DNA of 64,000 nucleotides from a virus (IMGVR_UViG_3300035682_000012:6073-70072), one strand, 5' to 3'; positions 548 to 37,950 are shown, counted from the first letter of the stretch. Made by a program: numbers and translations. The notes: generated by a model not told the origin, from the sequence alone.

Positions 548-1384
548 TTATAAATATTTGTTATTTAGAAATCCAACTATACCATTCGCCCATAGTTGGT
601 GAGCTTGAAAGCCAGGATGTCCATCATTTATTACATCAACCCCAATTTCATCGAATATTCTTGTTTTAGTTTTTTCACTTAATGTAACGATATTATTTTC
701 AATTTCACCATTAATTTGTAATTTTAAAATTCTATTATTACGAAAATTTGGAATAAATTTATTAAAATCAATTTGGCTAATAAAATAAGTGTAATTACCC
801 GATATGTAATATTCTATATTATGTAATTCAAAAAATGAACATAATCCTAAATATTTTTTAGCAGTTTCTAACTCCCATTGAATTGGATTTATAAAATTAT
901 TTGAATATTGTTTAATTATAGGAGTAATAGTATCTTTGTAGAATTCATCTTTTATTTGACCCTCATTAATCCAATTGAATGCAGTGTGTACACCTTCTAC
1001 TTTTCCATTACTATCATAATTAGTATTTGCAATTAAATATTTATTGTATTTGTTTGAAAACACATCTAATCTATTTATCGCATCAGGTAATTCTAATATG
1101 AATAGGGTTTTTTTAACTTCATCTAATGTATTTTTTAGAATGTAATCATATACTTTTCTAATAATTCTATCCGTACCACTACCACACTTTGCATCATTTA
1201 TTATTTTAATCGCCAATTGCTTTCCAACTAATGTAGGATAACAAACATCTACTTGTGATTCATATTCGAATCCGTATTGTTCTTTATATGCTGCTCTAAC
1301 GTGTTCTTTCTTTGCTTCAAATCCACCACCTTCGGTAAACGAGCAACCATTAAAATATATTTGATTAAATTTATCTTGTATCAT
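548..1384 (-). CDS. SGNH/GDSL-like hydrolase, paralog 1
   Basis: N-terminal block I 'IYFNGCSFTEGGGF'; C-terminal block V 'NDGHPG' (DxxH); same architecture as 7 other ORFs in the window. Confidence 0.6.
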   Translation of the reverse strand: MIQDKFNQIYFNGCSFTEGGGFEAKKEHVRAAYKEQYGFEYESQVDVCYPTLVGKQLAIKIINDAKCGSGTDRIIRKVYDYILKNTLDEVKKTLFILELPDAINRLDVFSNKYNKYLIANTNYDSNGKVEGVHTAFNWINEGQIKDEFYKDTITPIIKQYSNNFINPIQWELETAKKYLGLCSFFELHNIEYYISGNYTYFISQIDFNKFIPNFRNNRILKLQINGEIENNIVTLSEKTKTRIFDEIGVDVINDGHPGFQAHQLWANGIVGFLNNKYL

Positions 1385-1436
1385 AAAAAAAGGTAGTCTT
1401 TGTGACTACCTTTCAAATATACGAAATATAACTGAG

Positions 1437-1844
1437 TTATCCAACTTTAATGGATACTTTTTTTGGCTTCTTTTCTTCTATCTTAGGTAAAGAGATATGT
1501 AATATACCATCTTTTACCGTTGCTAATGTAGCACTAAGGTCCCAATTAGTTCCAATATTTAACATTTCATCAACAGGAAGTGCAATTGCATTCCAAATTT
1601 TATCATCGGTTTCTTTTTCTATTGATTTTACTTTAATAAAGTTTTGCTCAATTGTAATTTCTAATGTTTCCTTTGTTTGGCCAGGAACTGCTAATCCAAT
1701 TCGTAAGATATCTTCGTTTATATCAACTACTACTTGTTTGTGATTTGAAGTAGCTGTTCTTGTTTTTCTGGCCGCTGTCCAGTTTTGGTATGCATCATCT
1801 ACAAACCAATCGTTTAATAATCTGTCAAATTCATTAATAATCAT
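1437..1844 (-). CDS. Hsp20/alpha-crystallin small heat-shock protein
   Basis: C-terminal 'VKDGILHISLPKIEEKKPKKVSIKV' matches the sHSP 'G-V-L-x-[IV]-x-LPK ... I-x-I' signature; 135 aa. Confidence 0.7.
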   Translation of the reverse strand: MIINEFDRLLNDWFVDDAYQNWTAARKTRTATSNHKQVVVDINEDILRIGLAVPGQTKETLEITIEQNFIKVKSIEKETDDKIWNAIALPVDEMLNIGTNWDLSATLATVKDGILHISLPKIEEKKPKKVSIKVG

Positions 1845-1918
1845 AATTTAATTTTTTTTTGTTAATAATATTCTATATAGTTCAAATACTATACCATTGG
1901 GTTTAATCTGACAATTTG

Positions 1919-2593
1919 TTAGAATTTACCAACATTAAATGAAAATTTGTCATCTTTTACCGACTGTCTTTCAATTACCGTACTCATATGGTCTGCCCAA
2001 TGCATAATGTATTGAATATTTGATTTAAGATATTTTGATGTATCATATACTTTATAATATTTTTCATTGTCCTCATCGTATAGACCATCCGTAAGTTTTA
2101 TACCAAAATATTCGTTCTCATTAATTACAATACCATATTTGGATAATGTAAATAATGTTCTATCAGTTATTGCCATAAAAGAGTTTTTTTCATTTCTTTT
2201 GTATAACTCACCTCTATTTTCAATATGCCATTTAGAATCATTTGGTGCATAATGTAGTTCTTCTTTAGTACCCAATTTACCCAAATCATGATGTATTGCA
2301 ACAAATAGTAATTCTTCTTCGGTGAAATCACATACTCCACCCGCTTCTTCAAATGTTTTTTTCATTTTTAATGCGTTCTTACATACATTAAAGATATGGT
2401 CAATATACCCACCCTCATATGCATTGTGATAGTTTTTATTACCACTTGCAGGTGATACCATTAAGTTTCCACCTAATTCATCATCCGAGTACATAAACAA
2501 AAGTTTTTCTAATCTTTCGCCTGTAAAATATTTGTTAACGATGGCTAGAAACTTATCGTAGTTTGCTTTTAATTCTGCTTCTGTTTTTTTCAT
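1919..2593 (-). CDS. HD-domain phosphohydrolase-like protein
   Basis: 'GGYIDHIFNV' ... 'LLFVAIHHDLGKLG' fits the H...HD metal-binding motifs. Confidence 0.55.
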   Translation of the reverse strand: MKKTEAELKANYDKFLAIVNKYFTGERLEKLLFMYSDDELGGNLMVSPASGNKNYHNAYEGGYIDHIFNVCKNALKMKKTFEEAGGVCDFTEEELLFVAIHHDLGKLGTKEELHYAPNDSKWHIENRGELYKRNEKNSFMAITDRTLFTLSKYGIVINENEYFGIKLTDGLYDEDNEKYYKVYDTSKYLKSNIQYIMHWADHMSTVIERQSVKDDKFSFNVGKF

Positions 2594-3583: not shown

Positions 3584-4360
3584 TTATTTTAGAATATTTG
3601 TTGTAATTAATTGATTATTAACAAGATATGTATATAATTTTTTTGAATATTCTTTATTATGTATGTATCCTGGATGTGCACCATCAATACCATAATCTAT
3701 AAATGGATAAAATTCACCATCAAATCTATTATTATCATTATAATCATTAGTTGCATACCATCCATTCCAAACCCAATTACATTGTTTTGATTCTAAAAAT
3801 AATTTTATTAATTGATGGTTTTTATACCAATTGATAAAATTGTTTGATTTATTTAATAAAGTAAGATGTGCATTATGTTCATTTACACCATTTTCGGTTT
3901 CTTTAAAATACCCCCAACTTTTATGGTGGAATGGTTCTATACCACCTTCATTGGTATAAAATTCTCGTCTATGTGATTCGGTATACATAATTAAAACTAA
4001 ATCAGGTTTTACTAAATCGTAATATGTCATCAAACAACGGGTGATATAATCATTACTTCTACCACCACATCCGAAATTTAAATCAACTCCATTTGGTATT
4101 AATTTACACAATTGATGTGACCATGTTTCGTTATCATTTACACCAACTCCCTCAGTAATAGAACAACCTAATGACATTACCTTAAACCCTTCTTTTTTTA
4201 TACTAGCTCCTCTAAACCCCAATTCATTATAAGTGTAAGTGCAATTTCCTGTAATATCTGAACCCGAATCTTTATATGTTTGATTAACTCTTTCACTTAA
4301 ATTGTTTCTAAACGATGATATTTCAAATCCTTCAGGATTCCAATATTCTAATGGTTTCAT
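3584..4360 (-). CDS. SGNH-like hydrolase, paralog 2
   Basis: 'VMSLGCSITEGVGV' (block I), 'GCGGRSNDY', C-terminal 'DGAHPGYIH' (DxxH). Confidence 0.5.
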   Translation of the reverse strand: MKPLEYWNPEGFEISSFRNNLSERVNQTYKDSGSDITGNCTYTYNELGFRGASIKKEGFKVMSLGCSITEGVGVNDNETWSHQLCKLIPNGVDLNFGCGGRSNDYITRCLMTYYDLVKPDLVLIMYTESHRREFYTNEGGIEPFHHKSWGYFKETENGVNEHNAHLTLLNKSNNFINWYKNHQLIKLFLESKQCNWVWNGWYATNDYNDNNRFDGEFYPFIDYGIDGAHPGYIHNKEYSKKLYTYLVNNQLITTNILK

Positions 4361-4914
4361 ATTAATTTATCTATTTTAAATTCTTTCTCTAATGTTGTAC
4401 AATATATACTCATTTCTCTAATTTCAATTTCCTGAGGTTGTTTTATTAACCAATTTATCATTTTTGCAAGATTTTCAGTATCTAATTTATTTAAACTTTC
4501 AAACCCCGTATGTGTTGATAGTGTAGATGGATATAAATTTATAACTCTAACTTTTTTATTTTTATAATTTGTAATGGTATTTAAAGATACTTTTTTTAAT
4601 TCTTTTTTATTATTTGCATATTCAGGAGACCAATCGGATGAATGATAAACACAACTACTATTCATATTAATAATTGTTTTTGGTAAAAATTTCCATTTGT
4701 CAAAAATTAATTCAAATAATATTGTTTGATAATTTTTTTCATATGCGTTGTTTATAAAAACATCACAATTTTCTAATTGTTCAATAATTTTATTTGGGGT
4801 TTTTATATTAAAACCATTACTTCTACTAAATCCTATAACATCGTATTCTTTTATTAAATTTAAATAAATATCATTTCCAATTCCCTCTGAGTGGCCTGTG
4901 ATTGCAATTTTCAT
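4357..4914 (-). CDS. short-chain dehydrogenase/reductase-like NAD(P)-binding protein
   Basis: N-terminal Rossmann motif 'MKIAITGHSEGIGNDI' (TGxxxGIG); 185 aa. Confidence 0.5.
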   Translation of the reverse strand: MKIAITGHSEGIGNDIYLNLIKEYDVIGFSRSNGFNIKTPNKIIEQLENCDVFINNAYEKNYQTILFELIFDKWKFLPKTIINMNSSCVYHSSDWSPEYANNKKELKKVSLNTITNYKNKKVRVINLYPSTLSTHTGFESLNKLDTENLAKMINWLIKQPQEIEIREMSIYCTTLEKEFKIDKLI

Positions 4915-5432
4915 ATTAGTGACGTTTTTGGGAAATCTAAATTATTAATATGTAAAAATCCAATTATACTCCATCTTTCACCTTTTATTATTTTTTTTAC
5001 TTCATGCATTCTTTGACTAGGAAAAGTATATATGTTACCTGTTTCTTTTGGTAATTGTTCTTTTGGATTATATAAAACAAATTCTCCTCCATCATAATCA
5101 TTGTTTAAACATACTCCCACATTGTGTATTTGTGTTTTATAATATGTGTCGGTGTGTTTTTCAAATTGTTGGCCTTCAATATATTTGTGTATGTATATTT
5201 TATCTAATTCTTTTTTTATTTTTAAATTAGTTTTATTTGTAAAATACATGTGAATTTTATCAAATACCCATTGAGTTTTTTCGTTTCTATTAATTAACCA
5301 CACATCATAGTTTACCTTAAAAGTTTTATCATTATTGGAATATTCATGTTTACCAAAAGAATCTAATTGTTCTAATTCCTTTGATAAATTGATTATGTAA
5401 GTACATTCCTCTTTACTAAATACGATTTTCAT
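4911..5432 (-). CDS. 2OG-Fe(II) oxygenase superfamily protein
   Basis: 'FEKHTDTYY' (HxD) ... 'RMHEVKKIIKGERWSIIGF' (distal His plus 2OG-binding Arg). Confidence 0.55.
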   Translation of the reverse strand: MKIVFSKEECTYIINLSKELEQLDSFGKHEYSNNDKTFKVNYDVWLINRNEKTQWVFDKIHMYFTNKTNLKIKKELDKIYIHKYIEGQQFEKHTDTYYKTQIHNVGVCLNNDYDGGEFVLYNPKEQLPKETGNIYTFPSQRMHEVKKIIKGERWSIIGFLHINNLDFPKTSLI

Positions 5433-6607
5433 TAAATTAAAGTTTTAGGAATTGTTAAATTTTGAACATCACATATTTTATTTAAAAAAAGTTCTTTATA
5501 TATTTGTTTTCTATATTGAAAATCAAAATATAATTTTTGATTAAATTTACATATATCCAAAACCTCTTTACTATTATAAACATTTGATAATTCTAATGCA
5601 CTATCTATAATTTTTTTTATTTTATCTTTACCATTCATTTCATCATAATCCTCGTTGATTACTGAATTAAATGTTTTAAATCCCATATCTCTTAATGTTT
5701 TAAGATAGTGTTTTGATGGCGCATATATAACAAAGGGAACGCCTAAATAAATTGGTTTCCATGTTTTTTCCGTAATATGAATTCTATTGTCATATAACAT
5801 CGTTTCACTTATAATATTAACTTTACTTTGATAATACCAGTTTGGATTTATTATATGTAAATTCTCTTCCTGCATAATTACATCAGTAGTGTATGATACA
5901 TCATCTTCCAATTGAATTGATTTAAAAGCATTTACGTCTATATTGTATTCTAATATCAATTCTTTATTTATATTATTGATGGATACGAAATTCTTTATCC
6001 AAGTAAATCTGGTATCATTTAGTAATCCCCTATTATACAATTCTTCAATAATTTTATATTTTTTATCAGTCATTCTTCTATTTAAACATAAGAATTTTTT
6101 ATTAGGTATTGTTTTATTATTGGTTACAATATCTTTAATATATTTGTTTAGGTTATCATATGTTGCTAAGAAAAAATGTGGAAAAAATAAAGTATTCAAT
6201 ACAAATTTATCATATTTTATTTTGTGAAACCCAACTTTAGAAAAATCATTGTTTATAACAATTAATTTATTAATATCAAATTTATTATTGTTTAATATAT
6301 TAAGAAACTTTGAAAATACTTCATCTTTAAAAAGCTCGGCCTCGCCTCCATCTGCAATAAAATAAAAATTTTTACTTTGTAATTTAGTTAACAATGCTAT
6401 AAATTCAATAGAATGTGTATGTGCTGTGTTTTTATTATGTGGAACCGTCCATTCGTTTTCTAATAAAAAAACTAAAAAATTTAATTTTGTAGTGTCTATG
6501 GTATTGGTATCAATATTATTGAATAAGATACTATTATCTATTTTTTCAATTGAATTTCTAATGTTTGTATTTGGTAGAATATCACTATACCAAAATTGAA
6601 TTTTCAT
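5432..6607 (-). CDS. GT10-family (alpha-1,3-fucosyltransferase-like) glycosyltransferase, paralog
   Basis: 'VNIISETMLYDNRIHITEKTWKPIYLGVPFVIYAP' matches the FucT motif 'FENS..DY[IV]TEK.W....G.VPVV'. Confidence 0.55.
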   Translation of the reverse strand: MKIQFWYSDILPNTNIRNSIEKIDNSILFNNIDTNTIDTTKLNFLVFLLENEWTVPHNKNTAHTHSIEFIALLTKLQSKNFYFIADGGEAELFKDEVFSKFLNILNNNKFDINKLIVINNDFSKVGFHKIKYDKFVLNTLFFPHFFLATYDNLNKYIKDIVTNNKTIPNKKFLCLNRRMTDKKYKIIEELYNRGLLNDTRFTWIKNFVSINNINKELILEYNIDVNAFKSIQLEDDVSYTTDVIMQEENLHIINPNWYYQSKVNIISETMLYDNRIHITEKTWKPIYLGVPFVIYAPSKHYLKTLRDMGFKTFNSVINEDYDEMNGKDKIKKIIDSALELSNVYNSKEVLDICKFNQKLYFDFQYRKQIYKELFLNKICDVQNLTIPKTLI

Positions 6608-7651
6608 TTATATTAAAGTTTTATTTGTAGTATCAATAAACTCATATAAATTATGGAATAGATTTTGATTTTTCCATATTTTATTAAATTCTTTTTTAAA
6701 TAATTCATGTTCCGGATGTTCCGTATCCCATACCTGTTTTAATTTGAATTCACCCTCAGAAAATGTTCCCCAATTAGTTATCTTACCAAAAAACACATTT
6801 ACTTTTTTACCAAAAATAGAATACATTAAATTATAAAATGTTTCCATCTCCATATAGTTACTATCTTGTACAACAAAAGATGTCTTTACACTTATTTTTG
6901 GTAAGGTATTAATGAATTTTAAATTGTTCATTAAGTTTTCCCAATTACCACCTATCCTTGTTTTATTTTCATATGTGTCTTTAGTCCCAGCATCTATACT
7001 AATTTCACAACTTGTTACATATTTGTGCACATTTGGCATACTATCCCACATTTCTTTATTCCACATAGATGCGTTTGTATGTAAATGTATTCTTACTAAT
7101 TGAGGATATTTTTTAGGATTAAAATTTCTTAAATAGTTTCTAAATCCAACTGAAACAAATGGGTCTCCTGAACCTGTAATGTATAAAGTTTTCACGTGTT
7201 TTGAATAATATGTATCAATATCTTCAATCGTTTTTTCAACTCGCTTTATACCTTCACTATTTTCAACAATCAAATCAACTCTACATGATGGACATTTGTA
7301 ATTACAAGTTCTATCGAAATTCATTACCAAATATTCAGGTGTATTATTTTTTATAATTGGACTATTAATGTTTGAATTTGATTTTAAAATAACTGGGCCT
7401 GATGTCACTCCAAAATTTACTAATTTATTTAAATAAGGACAAAGCTCTTTACTACAATATTTAAACGAACCGTCTAAAATAGAATTTCTAATATCTACAA
7501 CCGGTTTACTATTATAAACATCTTTTAGTGGTATTTCACTAAGTTCTACTTTGTTTGATAACCAAGATGGACAACAAACAAAACAAACATTATTATGTAT
7601 TTCTAATGAGGTGAATGGTACGTTACATGTATAATTTTTTAAATCTACCAT
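6608..7651 (-). CDS. radical SAM enzyme
   Basis: 'CNYKCPSC' (CX3CX2C) followed by 'YITGSGDPF' glycine-rich SAM motif; extra N-terminal Cys cluster. Confidence 0.7.
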   Translation of the reverse strand: MVDLKNYTCNVPFTSLEIHNNVCFVCCPSWLSNKVELSEIPLKDVYNSKPVVDIRNSILDGSFKYCSKELCPYLNKLVNFGVTSGPVILKSNSNINSPIIKNNTPEYLVMNFDRTCNYKCPSCRVDLIVENSEGIKRVEKTIEDIDTYYSKHVKTLYITGSGDPFVSVGFRNYLRNFNPKKYPQLVRIHLHTNASMWNKEMWDSMPNVHKYVTSCEISIDAGTKDTYENKTRIGGNWENLMNNLKFINTLPKISVKTSFVVQDSNYMEMETFYNLMYSIFGKKVNVFFGKITNWGTFSEGEFKLKQVWDTEHPEHELFKKEFNKIWKNQNLFHNLYEFIDTTNKTLI

Positions 7652-7704
7652 AATATAGTATCACAAAAATCATTTGTTAATATCTTTTTATATATTGTCA
7701 TATA

Positions 7705-8397
7705 CTATATTAATTGGTTTCTTTTCTCAAATGGTTTTTCAAATTTTTCCCAAACAAACGATTTTAATTCATCATTTATTATTAATTTATTTGTTCTTTT
7801 TGTTGATTTGTTTTTATTTTCTAATATCAATCTTTCACCAAATTTATTTTCAATAAAATCTACAAATTTATCTATGTCTTTAATATCAAACTCATATGTA
7901 CATTTTTTATTACTTTTCCAATATTGTTCAGAAATCAATGTGGTACTAATTAATAAGTTAGGCATATTGTTAATTTCTACTAATTTCTCTTGTCCCGGTT
8001 TTAAAAAATTGTTAATACATTTTAAAGTTCCGGTTTCTGTTGCTAAATGTAAATTATTAATAAAATTATTGTCAAATATGGTATAAATAATTTCGTTAGT
8101 TAAATCTTCCCATTTACATATTGGTTCAAATGGAAGTTCATATTCAATTATATCCCAAATATGGTTTATTGAACTCAACCATTTATCAAACCAATCTCTA
8201 GTAATACACACACTTTCTTTATTTCCAAAATATTTTAAAGATGCATCTAACGATACGTGAATATGTTTATTATGTGTTGATTCTCTATGGTATTTTTCTG
8301 ATTTTATTTTAGAATCTAATATTGCGTTTTCTATTGAAACACTAGCACACTTAGGTGTAATTATCCATATAATATTATCATTTATTAAATAAGACAT
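7705..8397 (-). CDS. sulfotransferase-like protein (tentative)
   Basis: 'IITPKCASVSI' resembles the 5'-PSB P-loop (PK.G[ST]T); 'ITRDWFDKWLSS' resembles the 3'-PB RDP.xR..S motif. Confidence 0.4.
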   Translation of the reverse strand: MSYLINDNIIWIITPKCASVSIENAILDSKIKSEKYHRESTHNKHIHVSLDASLKYFGNKESVCITRDWFDKWLSSINHIWDIIEYELPFEPICKWEDLTNEIIYTIFDNNFINNLHLATETGTLKCINNFLKPGQEKLVEINNMPNLLISTTLISEQYWKSNKKCTYEFDIKDIDKFVDFIENKFGERLILENKNKSTKRTNKLIINDELKSFVWEKFEKPFEKRNQLI

Positions 8398-8399
8398 TA

Positions 8400-8717
8400 T
8401 TATAACATTGTTTTATTGTTTTTAGAATTAGTGATATATCCATATTTAATAAAATGTTCTGTTTCTACATCCTTCCACTTATGTAATGGACATGAACCTT
8501 TTTTATCTAAATGTGTTTTTTTAGTATATACTTTTGCGGATAGTGGACATCCACATTGACCACATTTTAATGACCACTCTTTTCCATTTAAAATTTCCTG
8601 TTTATGTGGACACGTTATACATATTGCAAATCTATTATCTGCTAATTCCTTTTGTTCTGGTGTATGATTTATTTTACTATACCACGCACCTATAATTTCT
8701 TTAAAATCTAATTTCAT
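8400..8717 (-). CDS. Cys-rich zinc-binding protein (105 aa)
   Basis: 'CITCPHK ... CGQCGCPL ... CPLH' cysteine clusters. Confidence 0.5.
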   Translation of the reverse strand: MKLDFKEIIGAWYSKINHTPEQKELADNRFAICITCPHKQEILNGKEWSLKCGQCGCPLSAKVYTKKTHLDKKGSCPLHKWKDVETEHFIKYGYITNSKNNKTML

Positions 8718-8718
8718 A

Positions 8719-9300: not shown

Positions 9301-9312
9301 AACTTATTTATA

Positions 9313-21641: not shown

Positions 21642-21646
21642 AAGGT

Positions 21647-28381: not shown

Positions 28382-28397
28382 TGTATTTTTATTAATG

Positions 28398-29250: not shown

Positions 29251-29284
29251 ATACTTAAAGATACGAAAAATTACCCATTTTACC

Positions 29285-29313
29285 AAAGAAAAAGGGTACT
29301 TTTTATGTACCCC
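29285..29313 (-). terminator. rho-independent terminator
   Basis: Minus-strand GGGUAC-AUAAAAA-GUACCC followed by UUUUUCUUU, just downstream of the stop of 29380..30177. Confidence 0.5.
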
Positions 29314-29379
29314 TTACTGCTATTGACTTGCATGACATGCAACATATTAAATATTTTTGTTATATGAGACTTTTACGGA

Positions 29380-30177
29380 CTATAAAGAATATCCATATAA
29401 TTGTGTTTCTATTTTAATAATAGGTATTTTTCCTATAATTGCACGGAGTTTTGGAGTATCTAATTCAATTCTGCTATTAGTATGATGATGACCTTTGTCT
29501 AAAATTGATTTAATTGCCAAATATAAAAAATTAAAATGTTTTTTTGATTCTATATCCATAGATACAAATTCTGGTATTAAATCTAATATTAGTTTGCATT
29601 CGTAATCCGTTTTAGGTAACGATAAATCTAAAAGATTACCATGCGAATATTGATATGTATTTGTAAAATTTTCTAAAAATGTTGAAATCATTTCCATATT
29701 TAGAAATGTATAATTAGTATTATATCCTTTAAAAAGAGAATCTTTTATTGATTTTGAATCAAAATTAAACTTATTTCGTTCAAACGCTAAAATTTCAAAT
29801 ATTTGTGGTTGATAATGTGTATCATCTATTTCGTACATTATCTTAGTATAGTTATTGATATATGATTCTATATCAGGTATGTTATATTTCTTTTTTAAAT
29901 TTAAAACATTTTCCGGTCCATCAATTGAATTCATAAACCAATTATACGTTGTAATAAATCTATCTATTGGATTTCTTGTAAAAATATAAAATTGCGTTTT
30001 TTCATCAAATGGATTAGGTGAATTATATAATATAGTAGCCTCCTCATATTTTATATTATTGTAATTAAAAAATAACATAAAGGTATTTATCATTTGTAAA
30101 CTACCTGTTTTATTAGTAAATTGTAGTGCAATATTATAATCTGGTAAAAAATATCCTTTCATTATAATATATCCCAA
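29380..30177 (-). CDS. sulfotransferase-like protein (carbohydrate-sulfotransferase-type motifs)
   Basis: 'FTNKTGSLQ' (5'-PSB-like) and 'IFTRNPIDRFITTYNWF' matching the 3'-PB 'RNPxDRxxSxY' signature. Confidence 0.5.
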   Translation of the reverse strand: MGYIIMKGYFLPDYNIALQFTNKTGSLQMINTFMLFFNYNNIKYEEATILYNSPNPFDEKTQFYIFTRNPIDRFITTYNWFMNSIDGPENVLNLKKKYNIPDIESYINNYTKIMYEIDDTHYQPQIFEILAFERNKFNFDSKSIKDSLFKGYNTNYTFLNMEMISTFLENFTNTYQYSHGNLLDLSLPKTDYECKLILDLIPEFVSMDIESKKHFNFLYLAIKSILDKGHHHTNSRIELDTPKLRAIIGKIPIIKIETQLYGYSL

Positions 30178-30989
30178 TTTTCATTTACATATCCATATAA
30201 AAACTCAGCAAACTTTATGTTGCCGAAATAACCAGGATGTAAATCGTTTAATATATCAGCACCTAATTCATCCTTTATAGTATATCCGTTTTTCATTATC
30301 CAATGATGAAAATCAGTATGCCCTTCTATATTTAATTCGTTTGATAATAATGATTTATCCAAAACACCTTTTAGTTTTTGACCACCTTCAAAATATATAA
30401 ATTTAATTTTATGGTATTTTAAAAATGTCAATAACATCTCTGCCTCTCTATTCATTTTAGCAACTTCAATATCATAATCTATAAAGTTATCTAAGTATTT
30501 TTCTAATGCACCATCTTTATTTGTATTTTTAAAATCACCATGGTGCCCATCCATATAATACCCACGTGTTGCGTATATATGGTCTCTTACACCATTCTCA
30601 TTAACTGAATGATTTACTACTACCCAACTATTTAGATTGGTTGAATACATATCTAATCTATGAAAGTATGCGGGTAATTCTAATAACAATAGTAACTTAT
30701 CTTTTTTATCCCAATTTCTTTTTACAAAATCAAATGCCTCTCTAACTGCTCTACCAGTTCCACCACCACTTGCTGCTTTGTTTTCTACCTTACATCCTAG
30801 CATATCTGCTAATCTACTAGCATATGTAACTTCTAATTGATTATCCCACCATACATTGTATTTTTCTTTGTAGATATCACGTACTAATGTTACCTTATCG
30901 TCTGCATACTTAATAGTTTCTAATCCGCCACCTGCACTATGTGAACATCCGGTTGCAAATACGATTTCTATATTATGTTTGTTTGTCAT
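30162..30989 (-). CDS. SGNH/GDSL-like hydrolase, paralog 3
   Basis: 'FATGCSHSAGGGLE' block I; C-terminal 'NDLHPGYFG' (DxxH). Confidence 0.6.
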   Translation of the reverse strand: MTNKHNIEIVFATGCSHSAGGGLETIKYADDKVTLVRDIYKEKYNVWWDNQLEVTYASRLADMLGCKVENKAASGGGTGRAVREAFDFVKRNWDKKDKLLLLLELPAYFHRLDMYSTNLNSWVVVNHSVNENGVRDHIYATRGYYMDGHHGDFKNTNKDGALEKYLDNFIDYDIEVAKMNREAEMLLTFLKYHKIKFIYFEGGQKLKGVLDKSLLSNELNIEGHTDFHHWIMKNGYTIKDELGADILNDLHPGYFGNIKFAEFLYGYVNENWDIL

Positions 30990-31198
30990 ATAAATTTTTT
31001 ACATCTTTCAATTGAATCATTTTCTGCTCTTACTTTTGCACGATACATTATTCTAACAATAGCACCTAATTGTTCATCGGTTAAATCATCATCTAATATT
31101 ATTTCTTTACGAATTAATAATGTTTCTTTAGCTTCCTCTGCCCATGCTATTATTTCTTTTGCGTAATGTTTTTCCATATTAATTAAACCATTTATCAA
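30986..31198 (-). CDS. hypothetical protein (70 aa)
   Basis: Minus-strand ORF with ATGA overlap. Confidence 0.45.
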   Translation of the reverse strand: MINGLINMEKHYAKEIIAWAEEAKETLLIRKEIILDDDLTDEQLGAIVRIMYRAKVRAENDSIERCKKFI

Positions 31199-31439
31199 AT
31201 TCAGTTGGCTCTGGTCTGTCTACTTTCTTTGTTATCTTTCTTGTTTTTACAAAAGGTTCATCACTCTTAACACCATCCATTTGTTTAGGGTTTGATTTCT
31301 TTACCTTTACCTTTTCTGGATTCAATTCTGCTCTTAATTGAATTTTCTCTCGCATAGTTAAATCTGTCATTCTATGGTATTGTTTTAAATCCAATGCCGA
31401 TTCAACTATATAATATCCTTCCTTATCTTGCTTCAACAT
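31179..31439 (-). CDS. hypothetical protein (86 aa)
   Basis: Minus-strand ORF. Confidence 0.45.
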   Translation of the reverse strand: MLKQDKEGYYIVESALDLKQYHRMTDLTMREKIQLRAELNPEKVKVKKSNPKQMDGVKSDEPFVKTRKITKKVDRPEPTEFDKWFN

Positions 31440-31704
31440 TTGTTTCGGTTTTAGTCATTTGTTTATGTATTCTCGCTGCGATTTCATATTGCTCATTCTC
31501 TACACATACCGCTAACATATCAGGTAACATACTTTCATCAAATTCTAATTGGTTTTGTTCATCTGTATTTTGATTATATAATGCAATCAATTCATTCATT
31601 ACTCCTTCCATAAACTCACTATCCTTTAATGTGTTTATAAGTTGCTGCATAAATACTTTTCTTATTTCACCATCCCCTTTGTGTTTGTTACGTCTACTTT
31701 TCAT
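31423..31704 (-). CDS. hypothetical protein (93 aa)
   Basis: Minus-strand ORF. Confidence 0.45.
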   Translation of the reverse strand: MKSRRNKHKGDGEIRKVFMQQLINTLKDSEFMEGVMNELIALYNQNTDEQNQLEFDESMLPDMLAVCVENEQYEIAARIHKQMTKTETNVEAR

Positions 31705-31705
31705 A

Positions 31706-32260
31706 TTAGCTATTGGTTGTATCGGTTAATGGAACTATTGATTGTCTATTGTTATCACCATCGGTTATAACTCTGATTGAATTGATTTCAGCTAAATCGG
31801 TTAAAGTGACCTTTTCTATATTAATACCCCACTCTTTAACTTTAGCACCAATTGTTTTGGTTAATTCAACTTCTATATCAATCAAGTCTTCCCAATTTCG
31901 TTCCTCAATAATTTCTCTAATCATTGCACCCGTTGTGTCTACCAATACATCAGTCGGGTGTGCTAACTTAGTTAAAAACAAATATGCATCTGCAATATCA
32001 TACCTAACAATTGCTCTTACTACTATATTTCTATAATCTAATGATGTGATTGATTGTGGATGCAAATGTATTGATTGTGTTACAATGGTTTGATGCCATA
32101 CTGAATCTACAAATGGTATTTTCCAATGTAAACCCGGATCTTTTATATCATTAAACTTACCGAATCTTAATACCAATGCCTTTTCCCACATATCCACTAC
32201 GAATACGGGCATTATTGAATGTCCAAATTGTTGTATTACTGCTATTAATTTATCAAACAT
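31706..32260 (-). CDS. SPFH/band-7 (stomatin/prohibitin-like) domain protein
   Basis: 'EKALVLRFGKF' near the N-terminus and 'GINIEKVTLTDL' resemble HflK/C-stomatin core motifs; promoter-like motif 20 nt upstream. Confidence 0.6.
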   Translation of the reverse strand: MFDKLIAVIQQFGHSIMPVFVVDMWEKALVLRFGKFNDIKDPGLHWKIPFVDSVWHQTIVTQSIHLHPQSITSLDYRNIVVRAIVRYDIADAYLFLTKLAHPTDVLVDTTGAMIREIIEERNWEDLIDIEVELTKTIGAKVKEWGINIEKVTLTDLAEINSIRVITDGDNNRQSIVPLTDTTNS

Positions 32261-32275
32261 AACCTTTATTTTTAT

Positions 32276-32285
32276 AAAGATACGA
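32276..32285 (-). promoter_or_regulatory. promoter-like motif AAAGATACGA
   Basis: About 18 nt upstream of the ATG at 32260. Confidence 0.5.
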
Positions 32286-32378
32286 TAAATTATTCAAACT
32301 ACCAAATGTTATTGTGATTTTCTATTCTTAGCCTTTACATCTATTGTACCTTTGGTATTAGTTTTACCAACTGAATTG

Positions 32379-32648
32379 TTAGATACTATCTTGTTCTGCT
32401 TCTTCTTGTCGGACTTCATTATGTTCTGCAATAGGATGTCCTTTTGACTCATTGATTTGCTCATATTCTAAATCTTGTATTGTTTCTAAAAATATATAAT
32501 CGTTGGATGTTTTGGGTCTTAATATGTAATCAGCTTCGTAATATTCTTTGGCTAATTCTAAATCATTTATGCGTTCACCATCGATTGTTTTTTTAACGAT
32601 ATATAGTTTATCATTAAACTTCATCAATTGTCTATTTAATTGAAACAT
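32379..32648 (-). CDS. hypothetical protein (89 aa)
   Basis: Minus-strand ORF. Confidence 0.45.
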   Translation of the reverse strand: MFQLNRQLMKFNDKLYIVKKTIDGERINDLELAKEYYEADYILRPKTSNDYIFLETIQDLEYEQINESKGHPIAEHNEVRQEEAEQDSI

Positions 32649-32649
32649 A

Positions 32650-32892
32650 TTATTTAGATTTTGTTTCTTTTGCTTTTTGTTCTGCTAAATAATCACCTAA
32701 TACTTTACTGCCTCTTTTAGTAGTCATTAATTCTTTTTGTGAAACTCTTATACCATTACGATATACTCTTAGTTCTAGCTCCTCGCCATTTTTTAACATA
32801 AAGAAATGATATTCAGGCTTAAAGAATTGCTTTATTTTTCTAAATATATTCATAATGTAAATATACAATAAGTTATCCATTATACCAAACAA
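32650..32892 (-). CDS. hypothetical protein (80 aa)
   Basis: Minus-strand ORF. Confidence 0.45.
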   Translation of the reverse strand: MFGIMDNLLYIYIMNIFRKIKQFFKPEYHFFMLKNGEELELRVYRNGIRVSQKELMTTKRGSKVLGDYLAEQKAKETKSK

Positions 32893-32942
32893 AAATAGGG
32901 GTATTTTTTAATTACCCCTATTGTTAATATAAATATATAATA

Positions 32943-33281
32943 TTATTCAGTTACTTCTTCTACTGGAATTTCTACAACTGGTCCAACACCTGTCTCATGT
33001 ACATCATCTGCATGCACACCATTCACATCTTTATCCCAAACAAAACAATATCCAGGGTTTGCTACTGATGCTGCTGATGCTTTTACTTTATCATTTGGAG
33101 TGATAACTAAGTATCTGTCGGTTTCAAACTCATCCATACTTAACACAGCTGCTGTGAATATAGTTCCATCTTCATTTACTAATGTAACACCAACTTGTCC
33201 AGCTTGATACAATGCTTCATTTGCATCTGATAATTCTCTGAATCCAGCGTATTTAACTTCTCTTGTTATTAATTCTGACAT
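32943..33281 (-). CDS. hypothetical protein (112 aa)
   Basis: Minus-strand ORF; noticeably less AT-rich codon usage than its neighbours. Confidence 0.5.
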   Translation of the reverse strand: MSELITREVKYAGFRELSDANEALYQAGQVGVTLVNEDGTIFTAAVLSMDEFETDRYLVITPNDKVKASAASVANPGYCFVWDKDVNGVHADDVHETGVGPVVEIPVEEVTE

Positions 33282-33284
33282 TTT

Positions 33285-34079
33285 TTAATCTCCTTTTTCT
33301 TTTATATAAGTATTATGATTTATGTAATTAAGTATGTTTTTGGCTATAAATTTATGTCCAGTTTCTCCAAAATGTGAATCTTTTACTATTTTATTAGTTT
33401 CAAATTCAATAATCAAATCAGTATTCCAATCTATATGATTACTACATTCATATGCCGTTTCTACAATTCCTCTGTCACATTCAAATTTAATTAAATTAGG
33501 AAAATTTAATATAGATGTATTTTCTTTTATACACTGCTCTATATTTGGATAACTCCATAAAAATACATTTTTAGTTACATTACTTTTAATGTAATTTAAT
33601 AATGATAATATTATTACAACAGAATTTATCGATATCCAATCTTCAAAATCTAAATGTGCCATATAAAATTGACGATATTTATCATTATCATATTTTAAAC
33701 TACCGCCGGCTTGAAATGCAGTAGTTTCCCACTTTCCTTCATTGTTTTTATACGGAACTTCAAATCTATGATAATGTGTTAATTGAAATAATACAACATC
33801 ATTTTCTTTTATATTTGGTAGGTCTTTTAATAGCTTTTTAAATTGTTGTGAATTACTATCACCACCTTCTGCTCTTAATATCCAATCTAAGTTCAATTCA
33901 TTTGCTATTATTTCAAAAAATGGCATTCCCTTTCTACCTAACCATTTGGTATAGTCAGTTTCCATAAAATTAATATCATTCTTTATTCTAGGTAATCCTG
34001 GATCTTCAAAGTGTGAATATCCTAATAGATTGCCGGCACTATGTGAACATCCATATATGTATAACTTATCCATTTTCAT
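33285..34079 (-). CDS. SGNH/GDSL-like hydrolase, paralog 4
   Basis: 'YIYGCSHSAGN' block I; C-terminal 'DSHFGETGH'. Confidence 0.6.
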   Translation of the reverse strand: MKMDKLYIYGCSHSAGNLLGYSHFEDPGLPRIKNDINFMETDYTKWLGRKGMPFFEIIANELNLDWILRAEGGDSNSQQFKKLLKDLPNIKENDVVLFQLTHYHRFEVPYKNNEGKWETTAFQAGGSLKYDNDKYRQFYMAHLDFEDWISINSVVIILSLLNYIKSNVTKNVFLWSYPNIEQCIKENTSILNFPNLIKFECDRGIVETAYECSNHIDWNTDLIIEFETNKIVKDSHFGETGHKFIAKNILNYINHNTYIKEKGD

Positions 34080-34749
34080 TTATGTATTTGTGTATCATTT
34101 CTGCAACTCGTCTATGTGATTCCGTACTCATATGACCATCTTGCATTTCACCACTTTCCGCCAAAGTTGTTAATTTATAATGCTTAGTGTATCTACCCAA
34201 TGTATTAAATTGTTCATCACCAAATTTTATTGTAACTTTTGAATTTACATCCTCTCTAAAAAAGTATTCGTAATCTTTACACATCCAATCTTCATAGAAA
34301 AACACATAATATTTAAATCCAATCAATTTACTTAATTCTTTTAAGAAAATATGTGTTTGTATTATTGGATGTTGTGATTTTAGGTCTGTAATTTTATACC
34401 AACTTTCATTATTAATATCATTTGGATTTGGATTAATTCCTTTACGTTCTGCCCATGCACCGTTGTATATTTCTTTTTGCTGTGTATCATACCAAACGGA
34501 CCTACTAAAATGTGTAAATTGTACTATTAGTAAATCATCTTTTTTTATGTTATTGATATTTTTAAAGATTTCGGTAACAATACTATCATTACCTTGTCCA
34601 CTCTTATCCGGTTGATTATATTTTAAATCAAACCATTCACTTAAATATTTTCCATATGGTTTTATACCATCGGTTTTTGCTTCATCTTTCCAAATAGTAG
34701 TAGAATGTGAACATCCAAATATCCAAATATTATTTTGTTCCATTTTCAA
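34066..34749 (-). CDS. SGNH/GDSL-like hydrolase, paralog 5
   Basis: 'WIFGCSHSTT' block I; C-terminal 'DGHMSTESH'. Confidence 0.6.
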   Translation of the reverse strand: MKMEQNNIWIFGCSHSTTIWKDEAKTDGIKPYGKYLSEWFDLKYNQPDKSGQGNDSIVTEIFKNINNIKKDDLLIVQFTHFSRSVWYDTQQKEIYNGAWAERKGINPNPNDINNESWYKITDLKSQHPIIQTHIFLKELSKLIGFKYYVFFYEDWMCKDYEYFFREDVNSKVTIKFGDEQFNTLGRYTKHYKLTTLAESGEMQDGHMSTESHRRVAEMIHKYINENG

Positions 34750-35461
34750 AATATTTTATTATAATATCTGCCCAAAGTTTGTGACCGGGTGCACCAAAAT
34801 GTCCATCGGGAACCTCACCATTTGTTTCTTGTGCTAATGCCATTTTATTATCATATACAAATGAACTAAATTTTTTATATTTATCTGGTATTAAAAATAC
34901 GTCGGTATCTACACCATCTAATATATCATTATCATGTGTCCATATACATACATTATCACATATCGAATTTAATAAATATTTTACTGCTTTGATTTGTCGA
35001 ATCAATCTATCTTTAAATACTTTATTATTTCTATTGTTTACAATTTCTAATAATCCTTGTCTACTTAAAGCATTATTTTGAAATACAATATCCGATGTTG
35101 TTGATATACTATTTATGTTAGTTGGTGATAATATATTATTTATGAAAACATCAAATCTTTCAAAATAAGATATTCCAATTATAATATAATCATCTTTCTT
35201 TATATCTTTTATATGTGTAAATACATTATCAAATATCATTTCATTTGATGCACCACCACTAGCTGTATTGATTAATTCTAAATTGAAATGGTTAGACACA
35301 TAATCAGGATAGATTAGAATTTCCTCTCCATCCTGTTTGTTTAAATATTTTCTATACGAAATCGTAGTTGGTGAATATGGGTTTTCTTTAGGTGACCGAA
35401 TACACCCATCACCTGCGGTAAACGAATCACCGAAGCACCATAATTTATTTTGTGTAACCAT
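34730..35461 (-). CDS. SGNH/GDSL-like hydrolase, paralog 6
   Basis: 'WCFGDSFTAGDG' (canonical GDS block); C-terminal 'DGHFGAPGH'. Confidence 0.65.
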   Translation of the reverse strand: MVTQNKLWCFGDSFTAGDGCIRSPKENPYSPTTISYRKYLNKQDGEEILIYPDYVSNHFNLELINTASGGASNEMIFDNVFTHIKDIKKDDYIIIGISYFERFDVFINNILSPTNINSISTTSDIVFQNNALSRQGLLEIVNNRNNKVFKDRLIRQIKAVKYLLNSICDNVCIWTHDNDILDGVDTDVFLIPDKYKKFSSFVYDNKMALAQETNGEVPDGHFGAPGHKLWADIIIKYFENGTK

Positions 35462-35478
35462 TATTTAGTATTAATATA

Positions 35479-35745
35479 CTACCATTCAATCAACTTAGCA
35501 ATAGGCCATGCTGGATTTGAAATACTTACTAAATGTGCTTCTTCTACTAATCTTTCTTTTAATTCATCATCTTCGATGTCTAAAAAATTAACATGTTCGT
35601 ATTTCACTAATTCGTCTTCAGCAATTGTTATTGTTGAAAATGTATTATCTTTATTTAATACAATAAGTCCAAATAATTTTGCTTCTACTAATTCTACATT
35701 TCCAGCGTGCTCTAAAAATGGTCCAAATGCTTCTAAATTTATCAT
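35479..35745 (-). CDS. hypothetical protein (start at internal MINLEAFG)
   Basis: The ORF-table extension overlaps the kinase gene; the internal ATG removes the overlap. Confidence 0.45.
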   Translation of the reverse strand: MINLEAFGPFLEHAGNVELVEAKLFGLIVLNKDNTFSTITIAEDELVKYEHVNFLDIEDDELKERLVEEAHLVSISNPAWPIAKLIEW

Positions 35746-35780
35746 TTTGTTTTGTTTTATATAAATATATGTTTTTATTA

Positions 35781-36512
35781 TTACAATGTAACTACACCAC
35801 GTTTTTGTACAACTTTTGTTGCACAATCATTTGCGTATTCAATACTAACTTCTATACTTTTTGTTTTTAAATAACTAACTACTAATGAAGCCATAAAGGT
35901 ATCACCTGCACCACTCAAATCTCTAACCTCAATATCGTTGTTAACCGGATATGTAATACCATCATACATTGCACCTCGTTCACTCATTGTTATAATTAAT
36001 CTTTCTCGCCACATTTCGTATTCCTGTCCTTTACAATTTTCCCACTCAACTTCATTTATCTTAATGAATGTATAATTACGCATTTCTGCTGATAATGGTT
36101 TCTTTGTATCTATAAAAGTTAATGGATGTGAATCACTAATCAATTTCAAATCTGATAATGATAGAAATCCTTTGTCATAATCACTTACAATAACTGCATC
36201 ATAATCATTGAATGGAACTCTTTTTACATCAAATGAATTACTAACCTTATCATTACTATCAATTCTGATAATCATATGATTTGCTTTTTCCTCTACATAT
36301 CTAGTCTTTGTAATTTGTTCTTTGTTAGTAACCAACTCAACTTTCTCAGCTCCCAACGATTTAAGATTAGCTACTACATTACCACTCATACCCATATTGG
36401 TAATTGTTCTACTCGGTTCAAATATTGGCACAGGTCCTTCGGGACATAATCTTTTACAATAACCATATACAAATACATCAGTACAACTATCACCGATAAC
36501 TAAAACTTTCAT
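35781..36512 (-). CDS. pfkB-family carbohydrate kinase (HldE/RfaE kinase-domain-like)
   Basis: N-terminal 'KVLVIGDSCTDVF ... PEGPVPI' and C-terminal 'DLSGAGDTFMASLV' pfkB signature. Confidence 0.65.
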   Translation of the reverse strand: MKVLVIGDSCTDVFVYGYCKRLCPEGPVPIFEPSRTITNMGMSGNVVANLKSLGAEKVELVTNKEQITKTRYVEEKANHMIIRIDSNDKVSNSFDVKRVPFNDYDAVIVSDYDKGFLSLSDLKLISDSHPLTFIDTKKPLSAEMRNYTFIKINEVEWENCKGQEYEMWRERLIITMSERGAMYDGITYPVNNDIEVRDLSGAGDTFMASLVVSYLKTKSIEVSIEYANDCATKVVQKRGVVTL

Positions 36513-36568
36513 AATAACGATTTCCTATAAGTATTAATATGTTCAAAAAAATGATTAGCCATTCGTTG
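36508..36568. repeat. 61 bp direct repeat (copy 1), spanning the end and junction of SGNH paralogs
   Basis: 'ttcataataacgatttcctataagtattaatatGttcaaaaaaatgattagccattcgttg', identical except for one base to 37271..37331. Confidence 0.7.
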
Positions 36569-37282
36569 GTTAAACTTTTTTAGTATTTCTACTGACATGA
36601 TTTGTTGTCCTTTTACACCAATATGTCCATCTTGCATCTTACCATTACTTTCATCGGAAATAGTTGCTTTGTGTTCTTTGAAACAATCCTCTCCACCTAT
36701 ATATTTGTTCTCAAATTTAAGAAAGTATGGTTTTTTTAGAATTTCAATTTCATGTATATTTGGAGAATCTGGAGATTCTAAACACCAAAATACAACATTT
36801 TTTGTTTTTAGTAAATTTATTAATTTTTCAAATCTATTAAGTTGTCTGTGTTTGTATGCCGGTAATCCTGCAAAATAAACTGCAAAATCTACTAATGTTT
36901 CGTGTTTATGGTCAGTCATATCATCATCACCTATTAAGTTTACGTTAATATGTCTACTATCATCATATCTAACAATTGTATGTAAAAAACTAAATGAGCT
37001 TTTGTGTGGAACATCAAATCTACTATAATATGTAGCTTGGATTACAACATAATCGTTTTCTCCAATCTTATCTGCGTTATTTAAAATGTTGTCCAATATA
37101 TAGTCATTGGATGCACCTACTCTAGCGTGATTATGTAGTTCCAAATTTAATTCATGTGCTACTATTTCACACCAATATCTTTTATCAATATCATCGGATA
37201 AAGTAACTTCATAGAATGGGTCAGAATTATTAAAGCCGTGCCCATGTGAAAAACTATCACCGAAAATCCATAACTTATTCAT
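36509..37282 (-). CDS. SGNH/GDSL-like hydrolase, paralog 7
   Basis: 'WIFGDSFSHGHG' block I; 'DGHIGVKGQ'; C-terminal 'MANHFFEHINTYRKSLL' shared with paralog 8. Confidence 0.65.
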   Translation of the reverse strand: MNKLWIFGDSFSHGHGFNNSDPFYEVTLSDDIDKRYWCEIVAHELNLELHNHARVGASNDYILDNILNNADKIGENDYVVIQATYYSRFDVPHKSSFSFLHTIVRYDDSRHINVNLIGDDDMTDHKHETLVDFAVYFAGLPAYKHRQLNRFEKLINLLKTKNVVFWCLESPDSPNIHEIEILKKPYFLKFENKYIGGEDCFKEHKATISDESNGKMQDGHIGVKGQQIMSVEILKKFNQRMANHFFEHINTYRKSLL

Positions 37283-37331
37283 AATAACGATTTCCTATAA
37301 GTATTAATATATTCAAAAAAATGATTAGCCA
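37271..37331. repeat. 61 bp direct repeat (copy 2)
   Basis: See copy 1; encodes the shared C-terminus '...MANHFFE[HY]INTYRKSLL' plus the gene junction. Confidence 0.7.
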
Positions 37332-37950
37332 TTCGTTGATGTCCTAACTCATTAAAATGTTTATCAATATTACCATTCGGTTCTATAATATGTTGTTCCT
37401 CTAATTGGTCTTGCCACTTTGTATAAAACGAATAGTTTGTAAATTCGTTTGTTGAATTGGGTGCAGGTATAAAAGTAATAATCTCTTTGTATTTTTTAAA
37501 ATCTGAATGAACTTGTCCTTCTGCACTCCAATAGTAAATTGATATTTTTTTTTTAATACACCAATTGTTTACTTGTTTATTAAACCAATTATAATTAACC
37601 TTCCTCATTTCTACTAAATTATCTGCAAATGTTCCACCATTAGAATGTCTACTAAAATAAGCTTCTAAATCTATTAATTGTGCTTTTGTTGGATAAATAT
37701 TATACCTATCAAAGAATGTAAATTCAAATACAACCTTATCGCCTGGCTGAATTTCATCTCTCCTATCTATGAATTGCAATATAGATACCCAATTACATTG
37801 TCCAGGACGTGCACTATTTACTAATTCTAAATCTAATTTATCCGCCAATACATACGGCCAACTAATTCTTAATGTATCTTCATCAGTAGGTTGAATCAAA
37901 TTCATTCCGGTTGAAAACGAACAGCCAAATACCCAAAGTTTATTTTTCAT
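37279..37950 (-). CDS. SGNH/GDSL-like hydrolase, paralog 8
   Basis: 'WVFGCSFSTGMN'; C-terminal 'GHQRMANHFFEYINTYRKSLL'. Confidence 0.6.
   Translation of the reverse strand: MKNKLWVFGCSFSTGMNLIQPTDEDTLRISWPYVLADKLDLELVNSARPGQCNWVSILQFIDRRDEIQPGDKVVFEFTFFDRYNIYPTKAQLIDLEAYFSRHSNGGTFADNLVEMRKVNYNWFNKQVNNWCIKKKISIYYWSAEGQVHSDFKKYKEIITFIPAPNSTNEFTNYSFYTKWQDQLEEQHIIEPNGNIDKHFNELGHQRMANHFFEYINTYRKSLL

Follow-up and report, generated by a model that had tools for sequence, protein, structure and literature searches.

The stretch of viral DNA examined here, IMGVR_UViG_3300035682_000012:6073-70072 (64,000 nucleotides; 'the window' below, with positions counted from its first letter), carries eight open reading frames (ORFs) whose products resemble the SGNH/GDSL-type hydrolases. 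Each is named by its start coordinate; all eight are present where an earlier, sequence-only reading had placed them, and all lie on the minus strand (Table 1). Five sit together at 33285-37950, an array split, as that reading had also described, only by a PfkB-type sugar kinase ORF (35781-36512) and one short ORF. A family hidden Markov model (HMM) run against 325 six-frame ORFs of the window finds exactly these eight, the next ORF scoring E 0.12. The model had been built with all eight included, and the search was repeated with each left out in turn: seven are then recovered at E 1e-14 to 6e-32, with the best non-family ORF at E ~0.05 or worse, and ORF 3584 becomes marginal (E 0.011). Profile–profile comparison (hhalign) of the family with that of ORF 3584, with ORF 3584 itself excluded from the query profile, gives a probability of 97.2% (E 3e-11 over 190 columns) with four motifs in register. 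BLASTP divides the other seven into subfamily A (548 and 30162, which match each other at E 2e-26 to 4e-32 depending on the query) and subfamily B (33285, 34066, 34730, 36509 and 37279). The proposal of eight paralogs of one family holds insofar as all eight are homologous; seven form a single family with two subfamilies, whilst ORF 3584 belongs to a distant sister family and sits in another gene module.

Aligned, the eight proteins share four features without exception: a G-x-S near the N-terminus, a Gly ('block II') in the loop that follows strand 2, an Arg beyond strand 3 and a His near the C-terminus. The nucleophile block predicted from the sequence, G[CD]S, is thereby borne out, with Cys in place of the usual Asp in six ORFs (GCS) and GDS in two (34730 and 36509); loss of the catalytic Ser or His, which would have spoken against the assignment, is seen in none. 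Its C-terminal counterpart, 'D[GS]H', describes five ORFs, the remainder having DLH (30162), DKH (37279) or DGAH (3584), and the label 'DxxH' attached to it falls, seven of the eight being spaced D-x-H, with an Asp at least 90% conserved at H-2, and D-x-x-H appearing in ORF 3584 alone. Nor does the alignment recover a full Ser-Gly-Asn-His tetrad: the Asn of block III is not conserved, and the segment [T/S/P]-x4-R, with the invariant Arg, stands there instead. Across 132 diverse homologs neither the G-x-S nor the His varies, and Asp and two Arg reach at least 90% conservation; this speaks for a working enzyme and against a dead scaffold. In the active site we predict, the Ser belongs to G-[CD]-S-x-[ST]-x-G, just past strand 1, and would work with the Gly of block II and a His from the C-terminal D-x-H-x-G (D-x-x-H in ORF 3584); the invariant Arg of [T/S/P]-x4-R may bind an anionic group of the substrate, whether phosphate, carboxylate or nucleotide.

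Structure prediction settles the fold of the two proteins modelled, ORF 34730 (pLDDT, the predicted local distance difference test, 76.9; predicted template modelling score, pTM, 0.78; 34-sequence alignment) and ORF 3584 (pLDDT 90.3; pTM 0.90; 32-sequence alignment), as SGNH. Both models have the three-layer alpha/beta/alpha arrangement of that fold, which the sequence-only reading had proposed, and in both the G-x-S ends strand 1 (the strand stopping two residues before the Ser), the Gly comes after strand 2 and a loop before the last helix holds the His. These features are shared with known members of the superfamily—Escherichia coli TesA (1ivn), the CE2/CE3 acetyl-xylan esterases and the GDSL proteins 4rw0, 1vjg and 4rsh—in which the Ser likewise occupies a G-x-S-x-x-x-G turn after strand 1, a block II Gly is present and the C-terminal His precedes the last helix; block V of TesA, DGIHP, is close to the DGAHP of ORF 3584. 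The window family differs from them in lacking the block III Asn, in its invariant Arg 5-6 residues after strand 3, in the D-x-H of seven ORFs and in a block I that is mostly G-C/T/S-S rather than G-D-S.

None of the eight proteins has a signal peptide or a hydrophobic segment (maximum 19-residue Kyte–Doolittle mean, <=1.43), and in seven the nucleophile falls within the first 15 residues; we therefore place them in the cytoplasm and reject the idea that they are secreted or periplasmic enzymes. A likeness to phage tailspike deacetylases, suggested by the sequence-only reading, does not hold either. The SGNH parts of tail fibres and tailspikes (G7C gp63.1, 4qnl; SFP21A Gp09, 9lna) are domains of 600-850-aa virion proteins (aa, amino acids) that deacetylate the receptor outside the cell, whereas the window proteins are stand-alone and single-domain, 223-278 aa long, with no signal peptide, membrane segment or tail-fibre domain. 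Similarly, the AT3-SGNH O-acetyltransferases (OatA, OafA, PatB type) have an extracytoplasmic SGNH domain, unlike the proteins here, and no AT3 membrane acyltransferase was matched among the window ORFs scanned. Enterohaemorrhagic E. coli prophages offer a precedent for many phage-borne SGNH-type copies per genome in their NanS-p sialate O-acetylesterases, which act on an O-acetylated sugar; those copies occur one per prophage, have a DUF1737 plus SASA-type architecture and act on host-derived sialic acid, whereas the copies in the window are divergent paralogs within one phage genome.

The array is conserved well beyond the window. In a distant relative (L013) the genes run SGNH (37279-like), PfkB, two small ORFs, then SGNH genes resembling 34730, 34066 and 33285, several small ORFs and a Band 7 gene, with 42-50% protein identity between its SGNH orthologs of the array and ours (50% for 33285 and 42% for 37279, the latter directly upstream of PfkB). 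The position of the metallophosphoesterase upstream of the array is also kept in a distant relative (Metallophos, small ORF, SGNH, PfkB), and on a longer contig with the same P0047 protein a 381-aa gene and a metallophosphoesterase stand upstream of the first SGNH gene. The short ORF within the array (35479..35745), called as 88 aa in all relatives, found no family match in Pfam and PHROG scans. At least 19 independent metagenome contigs encode a protein identical to that of ORF 36509 in the same gene order, on which ground we reject an assembly artefact.

Against this conserved background whole genes come and go. Orthologs of 37279, 34730, 33285 and 30162 are present in two close relatives, L007 and L008, from which 36509, 34066 and ORF 29380-30177 are missing; this last, a 265-aa gene without a family match (the stretch at 29349-30161), is absent from both in its entirety. 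A 60-bp direct repeat, its two copies 59/60 identical, flanks a 770-bp unit that the relatives do not have and makes the last 17 residues of ORF 36509 a copy of the tail of ORF 37279. In L007, L008 and L013 the 37279 ortholog instead runs directly into the kinase gene, with 36509 missing, so that ORF 36509 is most simply an insertion in the window's own lineage. A 10-bp repeat (TCCATTTTCA when read on the + strand) likewise flanks the ORF 34066 unit, which is absent from L007 and L008; here, because an ortholog (47% identity) is present in the distant L013, the gene must have been lost from those two. On this comparison the copy number of the array looks to change by recombination at similar or repeated gene junctions. 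Ratios of non-synonymous to synonymous change (dN/dS) between the window and its relatives are 0.10-0.32 (0.10-0.16 for ORF 33285; 0.14 for ORF 37279; 0.12 for ORF 30162, whose orthologs in L007 and L008 are 93-94% identical), and we reject decaying pseudogenes accordingly; the seven paralogs read as old, individually maintained, functional genes under purifying selection.

Beyond the lineage, a search of 1.84 billion representatives with the family profile gathers 5832 clusters (50% identity) when cut at E <= 1e-3 and 1113 when cut at E <= 1e-10; the ORF 3584 family has 982 homolog clusters, with 59-95% identity among the matches listed. Block I is mostly GTS, GSS or GCS in the top family matches, with GDS rare, its Asp being replaced in most relatives by Thr, Ser or Cys. 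The commonest Pfam match of the wider family is DUF6071 (PF19547), found for 34/132 homologs at E < 0.01 (best 1.1e-6) and followed by Lipase_GDSL (12/132). Within the window, ORF 548 alone matches DUF6071, at E 0.017 and 15.2 bits against a cutoff of 27. In the literature searched, nothing relevant turned up on DUF6071 or on phages with several SGNH gene copies. Every homolog with a recorded source is a metagenomic 'hypothetical protein', on contigs of up to 237 kb; Foldseek against predicted viral structures gives 41 matches (E <= 1e-3), of which all but a few come from uncultured Caudovirales and some bear a label as SGNH-hydrolase domain proteins. Motif and pattern scans of one genome from each of 185,579 bacterial and archaeal species reveal no relative of either SGNH family, whilst a like pattern scan of IMG/VR returns 42 loci, all of 26-33% G+C and about half with two or three copies within +/-10 kb. 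Orthologs of ORF 548 occur at these 42 loci and also in metagenomes, where they are 47-88% identical to it. As far as scanning by pattern can tell, the family looks virus-restricted and is typically multi-copy in its lineage. Some metagenome proteins (P0062-P0069, P0131, P0328, P0329) are tandem double-SGNH single polypeptides of 455-596 aa, mirroring the overlapping tandem SGNH genes of the window.

The kinase embedded in the array is securely a member of the PfkB family, as first called (Pfam PfkB, E 4e-13; 49.7 bits against a cutoff of 25.8), and has the C-terminal 'DLSGAGDTF' with its GAGD ATP-binding motif. Its proposed likeness to HldE stands: TIGR02198 (rfaE_dom_I) is the best NCBIfam match, at E 1e-33, with a score of 116.8 bits that falls short of the membership cutoff of 345, and the protein has 243 aa against the 315 positions of the model. 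It matches phrog_8133 at E 5e-79 and shares 37-45% identity with the protein annotated in T4-like cyanophages as 'putative carbohydrate kinase'. In cyanophage S-SM2 the homologous kinase lies among phosphoheptose isomerase, nucleotidyltransferase and epimerase genes (a heptose/nucleotide-sugar setting); the window kinase, by contrast, is flanked by SGNH paralogs rather than by an isomerase or nucleotidyltransferase, and no nucleotidyltransferase was found beside it among the window ORFs scanned. Unannotated genes flanking the S-SM2 kinase were considered as possible SGNH family members and rejected. Related contigs of the lineage carry DegT aminotransferase, GT25, epimerase, HAD and NTP-transferase (nucleoside triphosphate) genes. 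Between the SGNH genes of the window, at 29020-29286, lies an 88-aa membrane protein, possibly a half-size sugar transporter, which matches YgjV (E 5e-9) and has a weak match to the MtN3/SWEET sugar-transporter repeat.

A second expanded family accompanies the SGNH proteins. Its members, of ~365-420 aa and referred to here as the ~390-aa partner family, share the conserved residues E...N-x6-R...E-x12-(T/S)-E-K...G-F. Among the top SGNH family matches are 650-700-aa proteins of other phages in which an SGNH domain is followed by a conserved C-terminal domain of ~390 aa, and this domain aligns with the window partner family in hhalign at 95.8% probability (E 7e-9). The position of ORF 38778 upstream of the metallophosphoesterase is conserved in relatives, and the ortholog of ORF 5432 adjoins radical S-adenosylmethionine (SAM) and SGNH genes on contig L009. 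The family has no Pfam, PHROG, PDB or source annotation, and a search of 5.8 billion proteins returned only unnamed proteins with no Pfam domain. ORFs 14559-15752 and 15743-17029, the second of them the weak fifth member in Table 1, are adjoining ~400-aa paralogs (BLASTP E 3e-25) without family annotation.

ORF 3584 is the last gene of a module conserved from the window (3584-11505) to an apparently freshwater contig of 297 kb (L009, 1322-8807). In the window it opens with proteins of ~496 and 176 aa, followed in turn by a 2-oxoglutarate (2OG) oxygenase, proteins of ~105 and ~230 aa, a radical SAM enzyme, the partner family member ORF 5432, another 2OG oxygenase, a short-chain dehydrogenase/reductase (SDR)-like protein and, finally, the SGNH protein; the second oxygenase and the SDR-like protein are members of the module as it stands in the window. 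Relatives have a carbamoyltransferase and an APS (adenosine 5'-phosphosulfate)-kinase-like gene near the module. The best NCBIfam match of the radical SAM enzyme is a twitch-domain radical SAM model, and one of the 2OG oxygenases weakly matches the cyclophane-peptide oxygenase YhhC, both far below cutoff.

The window itself (~29% G+C, nearly all long ORFs on the minus strand, no tRNA genes in its 64 kb) belongs to an uncultured lineage of large, low-GC aquatic phages. Its recognisable genes encode an ATP-dependent DNA ligase, a MoxR/CobS-like ATPase with a CobT-like neighbour, a UvdE endonuclease, an SPFH/Band 7 protein, several 2OG-Fe(II) oxygenases, one radical SAM enzyme and one metallophosphoesterase. 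Neither megablast of positions 30000-40000 nor tblastn of ORFs 34730 and 3584 found a match in 50,697 GenBank phage records. For the ligase and the CobS-like ATPase the nearest phages, at ~44-51% identity, are huge uncultured phages, Caulobacter phage Cr30 and Microcystis phage Mel-JY01; the best phage matches of the ATPase are a 484-kb uncultured phage and Mel-JY01, not the CobS of T4-like cyanophages. Close relatives (~91-98% nucleotide identity) are IMG/VR contigs of 52 and 100 kb, and more distant ones lie on metagenome contigs of up to ~300 kb, from marine and apparently freshwater samples. At one end of a related contig (L001) lies a gene with a weak match to Sulfotransfer_2. All-against-all BLASTP finds further small paralog sets (4911-5432 with 8719-9300; 20347-21725 with 46326-46676; 26171-26500 with 45684-46031), comprising a pair of 2OG-Fe(II) oxygenases and a number of groups of unknown proteins ~110-140 aa long; gene duplication is thus widespread in the region.

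Table 1. Features of the window discussed in the text (positions from the first letter of the window; E-values for SGNH-like ORFs are from the leave-one-out HMM search)
Position	Strand	Feature	Remarks
548..1384	-	SGNH-like, subfamily A, 278 aa	GCSFT...R...DGHPG; E 9e-21
3584..4360	-	Distant sister SGNH-fold protein (predicted), 258 aa	GCSIT...R...DGAHPG; ~58-aa N-terminal extension
5432..6607	-	~390-aa partner family member	Inside ORF 3584 module; ortholog of 389 aa in L009
15743-17029		Weak fifth partner family member	Family HMM E 1.6e-5
24655-25524		UvdE UV-damage endonuclease	Match E 3e-64
30162..30989	-	SGNH-like, subfamily A, 275 aa	GCSHS...R...DLHPG; E 2e-18
33285..34079	-	SGNH-like, subfamily B, 264 aa	GCSHS...R...DSHFG; E 3e-25
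34066..34749	-	SGNH-like, subfamily B, 227 aa from TTG	225 aa from gene-caller ATG; E 4e-19
34069..34078		10-bp junction repeat	Spans stop/start of consecutive genes; second copy 34739-34748
34730..35461	-	SGNH-like, subfamily B, 243 aa	GDSFT...R...DGHFG; structure modelled
35479..35745	-	Short conserved ORF, 88 aa from ATG	Between kinase and ORF 34730
35781..36512	-	Compact PfkB sugar kinase, HldE-domain-I-like, 243 aa	Inside SGNH array
36509..37282	-	SGNH-like, subfamily B, 257 aa	GDSFS; lineage-specific inserted cassette; E 2e-27
36509..36568		60-bp direct repeat, copy 1	3' end of ORF 36509
37279..37950	-	SGNH-like, subfamily B, 223 aa	GCSFS...R...DKHFN; E 1e-14
37279..37338		60-bp direct repeat, copy 2	3' end of ORF 37279
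38096..38806	-	Calcineurin-like metallophosphoesterase	Just upstream of array; Pfam Metallophos E 1.5e-15
38778..39935	-	~390-aa partner family member	Two genes upstream of array; paralog cluster with 5432, 54580 and 55670
40310-41521		FG-GAP repeat protein
43510-45147		HAD_SAK_2 domain protein	Beside ATP-dependent DNA ligase
54580-55677		~390-aa partner family member
55670-56926		~390-aa partner family member
60747-63930		MoxR/CobS-like AAA ATPase and adjoining 591-aa protein	591-aa protein: weak PHROG 'cobalamin biosynthesis protein' match (CobT-like)

The reading we favour is that these ORFs encode a family of SGNH-fold acyl hydrolases or acyltransferases that acts on a sugar or glycan substrate, and we put its probability at roughly 0.55. 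That the proteins are active cytoplasmic enzymes of this kind, from an old, virus-restricted, multi-copy family, we hold with considerable confidence; the nature of the substrate, taken as a separate question, is tentative, and a sugar or glycan is there a suggestion rather than an expectation. The systematic O-acyl tailoring of a glycan that the sequence-only reading had envisaged is plausible on circumstantial grounds, namely the links to the kinase and the metallophosphoesterase and the presence of sugar-nucleotide genes in related phages. Under the favoured reading, the eight proteins—soluble, single-domain serine hydrolases or acyltransferases of a virus-restricted, unannotated clade with the SGNH fold—would put acyl esters on, or take them off, sugar-phosphate, nucleotide-sugar or glycan intermediates, which would also be handled by the HldE-like kinase within the array, the neighbouring metallophosphoesterase and the partner family. 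The seven conserved paralogs presumably differ in specificity, and ORF 3584 would perform the equivalent hydrolytic step in its separate module, alongside radical SAM and 2OG-Fe(II) enzymes. A bolder version, which we think doubtful, would join the SGNH paralogs, the partner family, the HldE-like kinase and the metallophosphoesterase in an undescribed, modular, phage-specific pathway which would assemble or alter an acylated small molecule or glycan within infected cells, with the Arg-for-Asn site adapted to phosphorylated or nucleotide-linked substrates; in one variant of it, the ORF 3584 module would be a phage-encoded pathway for a RiPP-type peptide (made on the ribosome and modified after translation).

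Saying this, several observations weigh against the favoured reading. Scans of the eight ORFs with PHROG and NCBIfam gave no match reaching threshold; sequence searches of the PDB with two family profiles (A2, A4) returned nothing significant, and hhalign against PDB-verified TesA was not significant. The Pfam GDSL models, which the sequence-only reading had proposed as a check, stay below threshold for all eight: ORF 34730 scores 21.2 bits against 23.6 and ORF 3584 17.5 against 32.9, with no Lipase_GDSL match for the other six. The block III Asn is absent and seven ORFs have D-x-H where D-x-x-H is canonical; catalytic competence is therefore an assumption. No nucleotidyltransferase, sugar isomerase or recognisable glycosyltransferase adjoins the array in the window. 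A guess that the partner family is a GT10-like glycosyltransferase, prompted by a likeness of its E...(T/S)EK motif to GT10 fucosyltransferases, is unsupported: hhalign of the partner profile (A5) gives E 0.15 against a PDB-verified fragment of Helicobacter pylori FucT and E 0.06 against a four-sequence GT10 profile, with probability below 1%, and the '(T/S)EK' motif alone aligns. Finally, the best structural match of ORF 3584 is CgnD (PDB 8a2n), an SGNH enzyme that cleaves a peptide.

This last match raises the question of whether some or all of the proteins are instead peptide or amide hydrolases of phage RiPP-like pathways, with ORF 3584 releasing or processing the product of its radical SAM and 2OG-Fe(II) neighbours. 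CgnD, an SGNH-type hydrolase, frees the crocagin core by removing its leader peptide (PMC10070186), a role that would suit a module containing a twitch-domain-like radical SAM enzyme and a weakly YhhC-like oxygenase, and the carbamoyltransferase genes near the module in relatives have a counterpart in the crocagin cluster. The neighbour matches, however, are all far below curated cutoffs, and ORF 3584 has no detectable sequence similarity to CgnD; the phage module adds a radical SAM enzyme and the ~390-aa family, both absent from the crocagin operon as PMC10070186 describes it, and neither a precursor peptide nor a CgnB/CgnE-like binding protein turned up in it, although no search was aimed at them. 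The other seven paralogs stand beside a sugar kinase rather than peptide-modifying genes, and CgnD is only 31st among the structural matches of ORF 34730. That some or all of the set are peptide or amide hydrolases we judge unlikely; for ORF 3584 taken singly, a role like that of CgnD is a live rival. Lipid-directed enzymes of the TesA type, thioesterases or lysophospholipases that remodel host lipids or pools of acyl-coenzyme A or acyl carrier protein, would account for the TesA-like block V of ORF 3584 and for the Joint Genome Institute (JGI) label 'lysophospholipase L1-like esterase' on two of its homologs; but such labels are automatic, the neighbourhood has no lipid-metabolism genes and the genes conserved alongside encode a sugar kinase and a phosphoesterase, so that we find this reading harder still to credit than a peptide one.

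The pattern of gain and loss could also be that of a diversifying family for counter-defence or host takeover, which destroys host signalling or defence molecules and varies in copy number through an arms race. Its restriction to viruses, its multiple copies in many related phages, the turnover of whole genes between relatives ~91-98% identical in nucleotide sequence and the wealth of small unknown ORFs in the region are all of the kind such a family would show, yet each paralog is kept as an ortholog at 42-50% identity in conserved order, selection is purifying, and no link to a known defence signal was seen (defence libraries were not scanned); we regard it as improbable. Proteins with a catalytically dead SGNH fold, serving as binding or scaffold modules, would explain the missing Asn, the non-canonical Asp-His spacing of seven ORFs and the failure of any GDSL model to reach threshold, but would leave unexplained an invariant Ser and His and an Asp at least 90% conserved over 132 divergent homologs, residues that all eight window proteins keep, and this alternative we consider very improbable indeed.

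Both the fold and the general type of reaction are ordinary; what is distinctive is the scale of the expansion, the restriction to viruses, the altered active-site motifs and the fused partner family. The lineage is abundant in marine and freshwater metagenomes and devotes up to eight genes per 64 kb to this one fold and a further four to six to the partner family: a large and conserved investment in a chemistry that no current annotation library names. The family would also provide a test of whether an SGNH active site works with Arg in place of the oxyanion-hole Asn. Its substrate, once defined, would give a function to thousands of viral 'hypothetical proteins' and show how these phages act on the sugars, lipids or peptides of their hosts.

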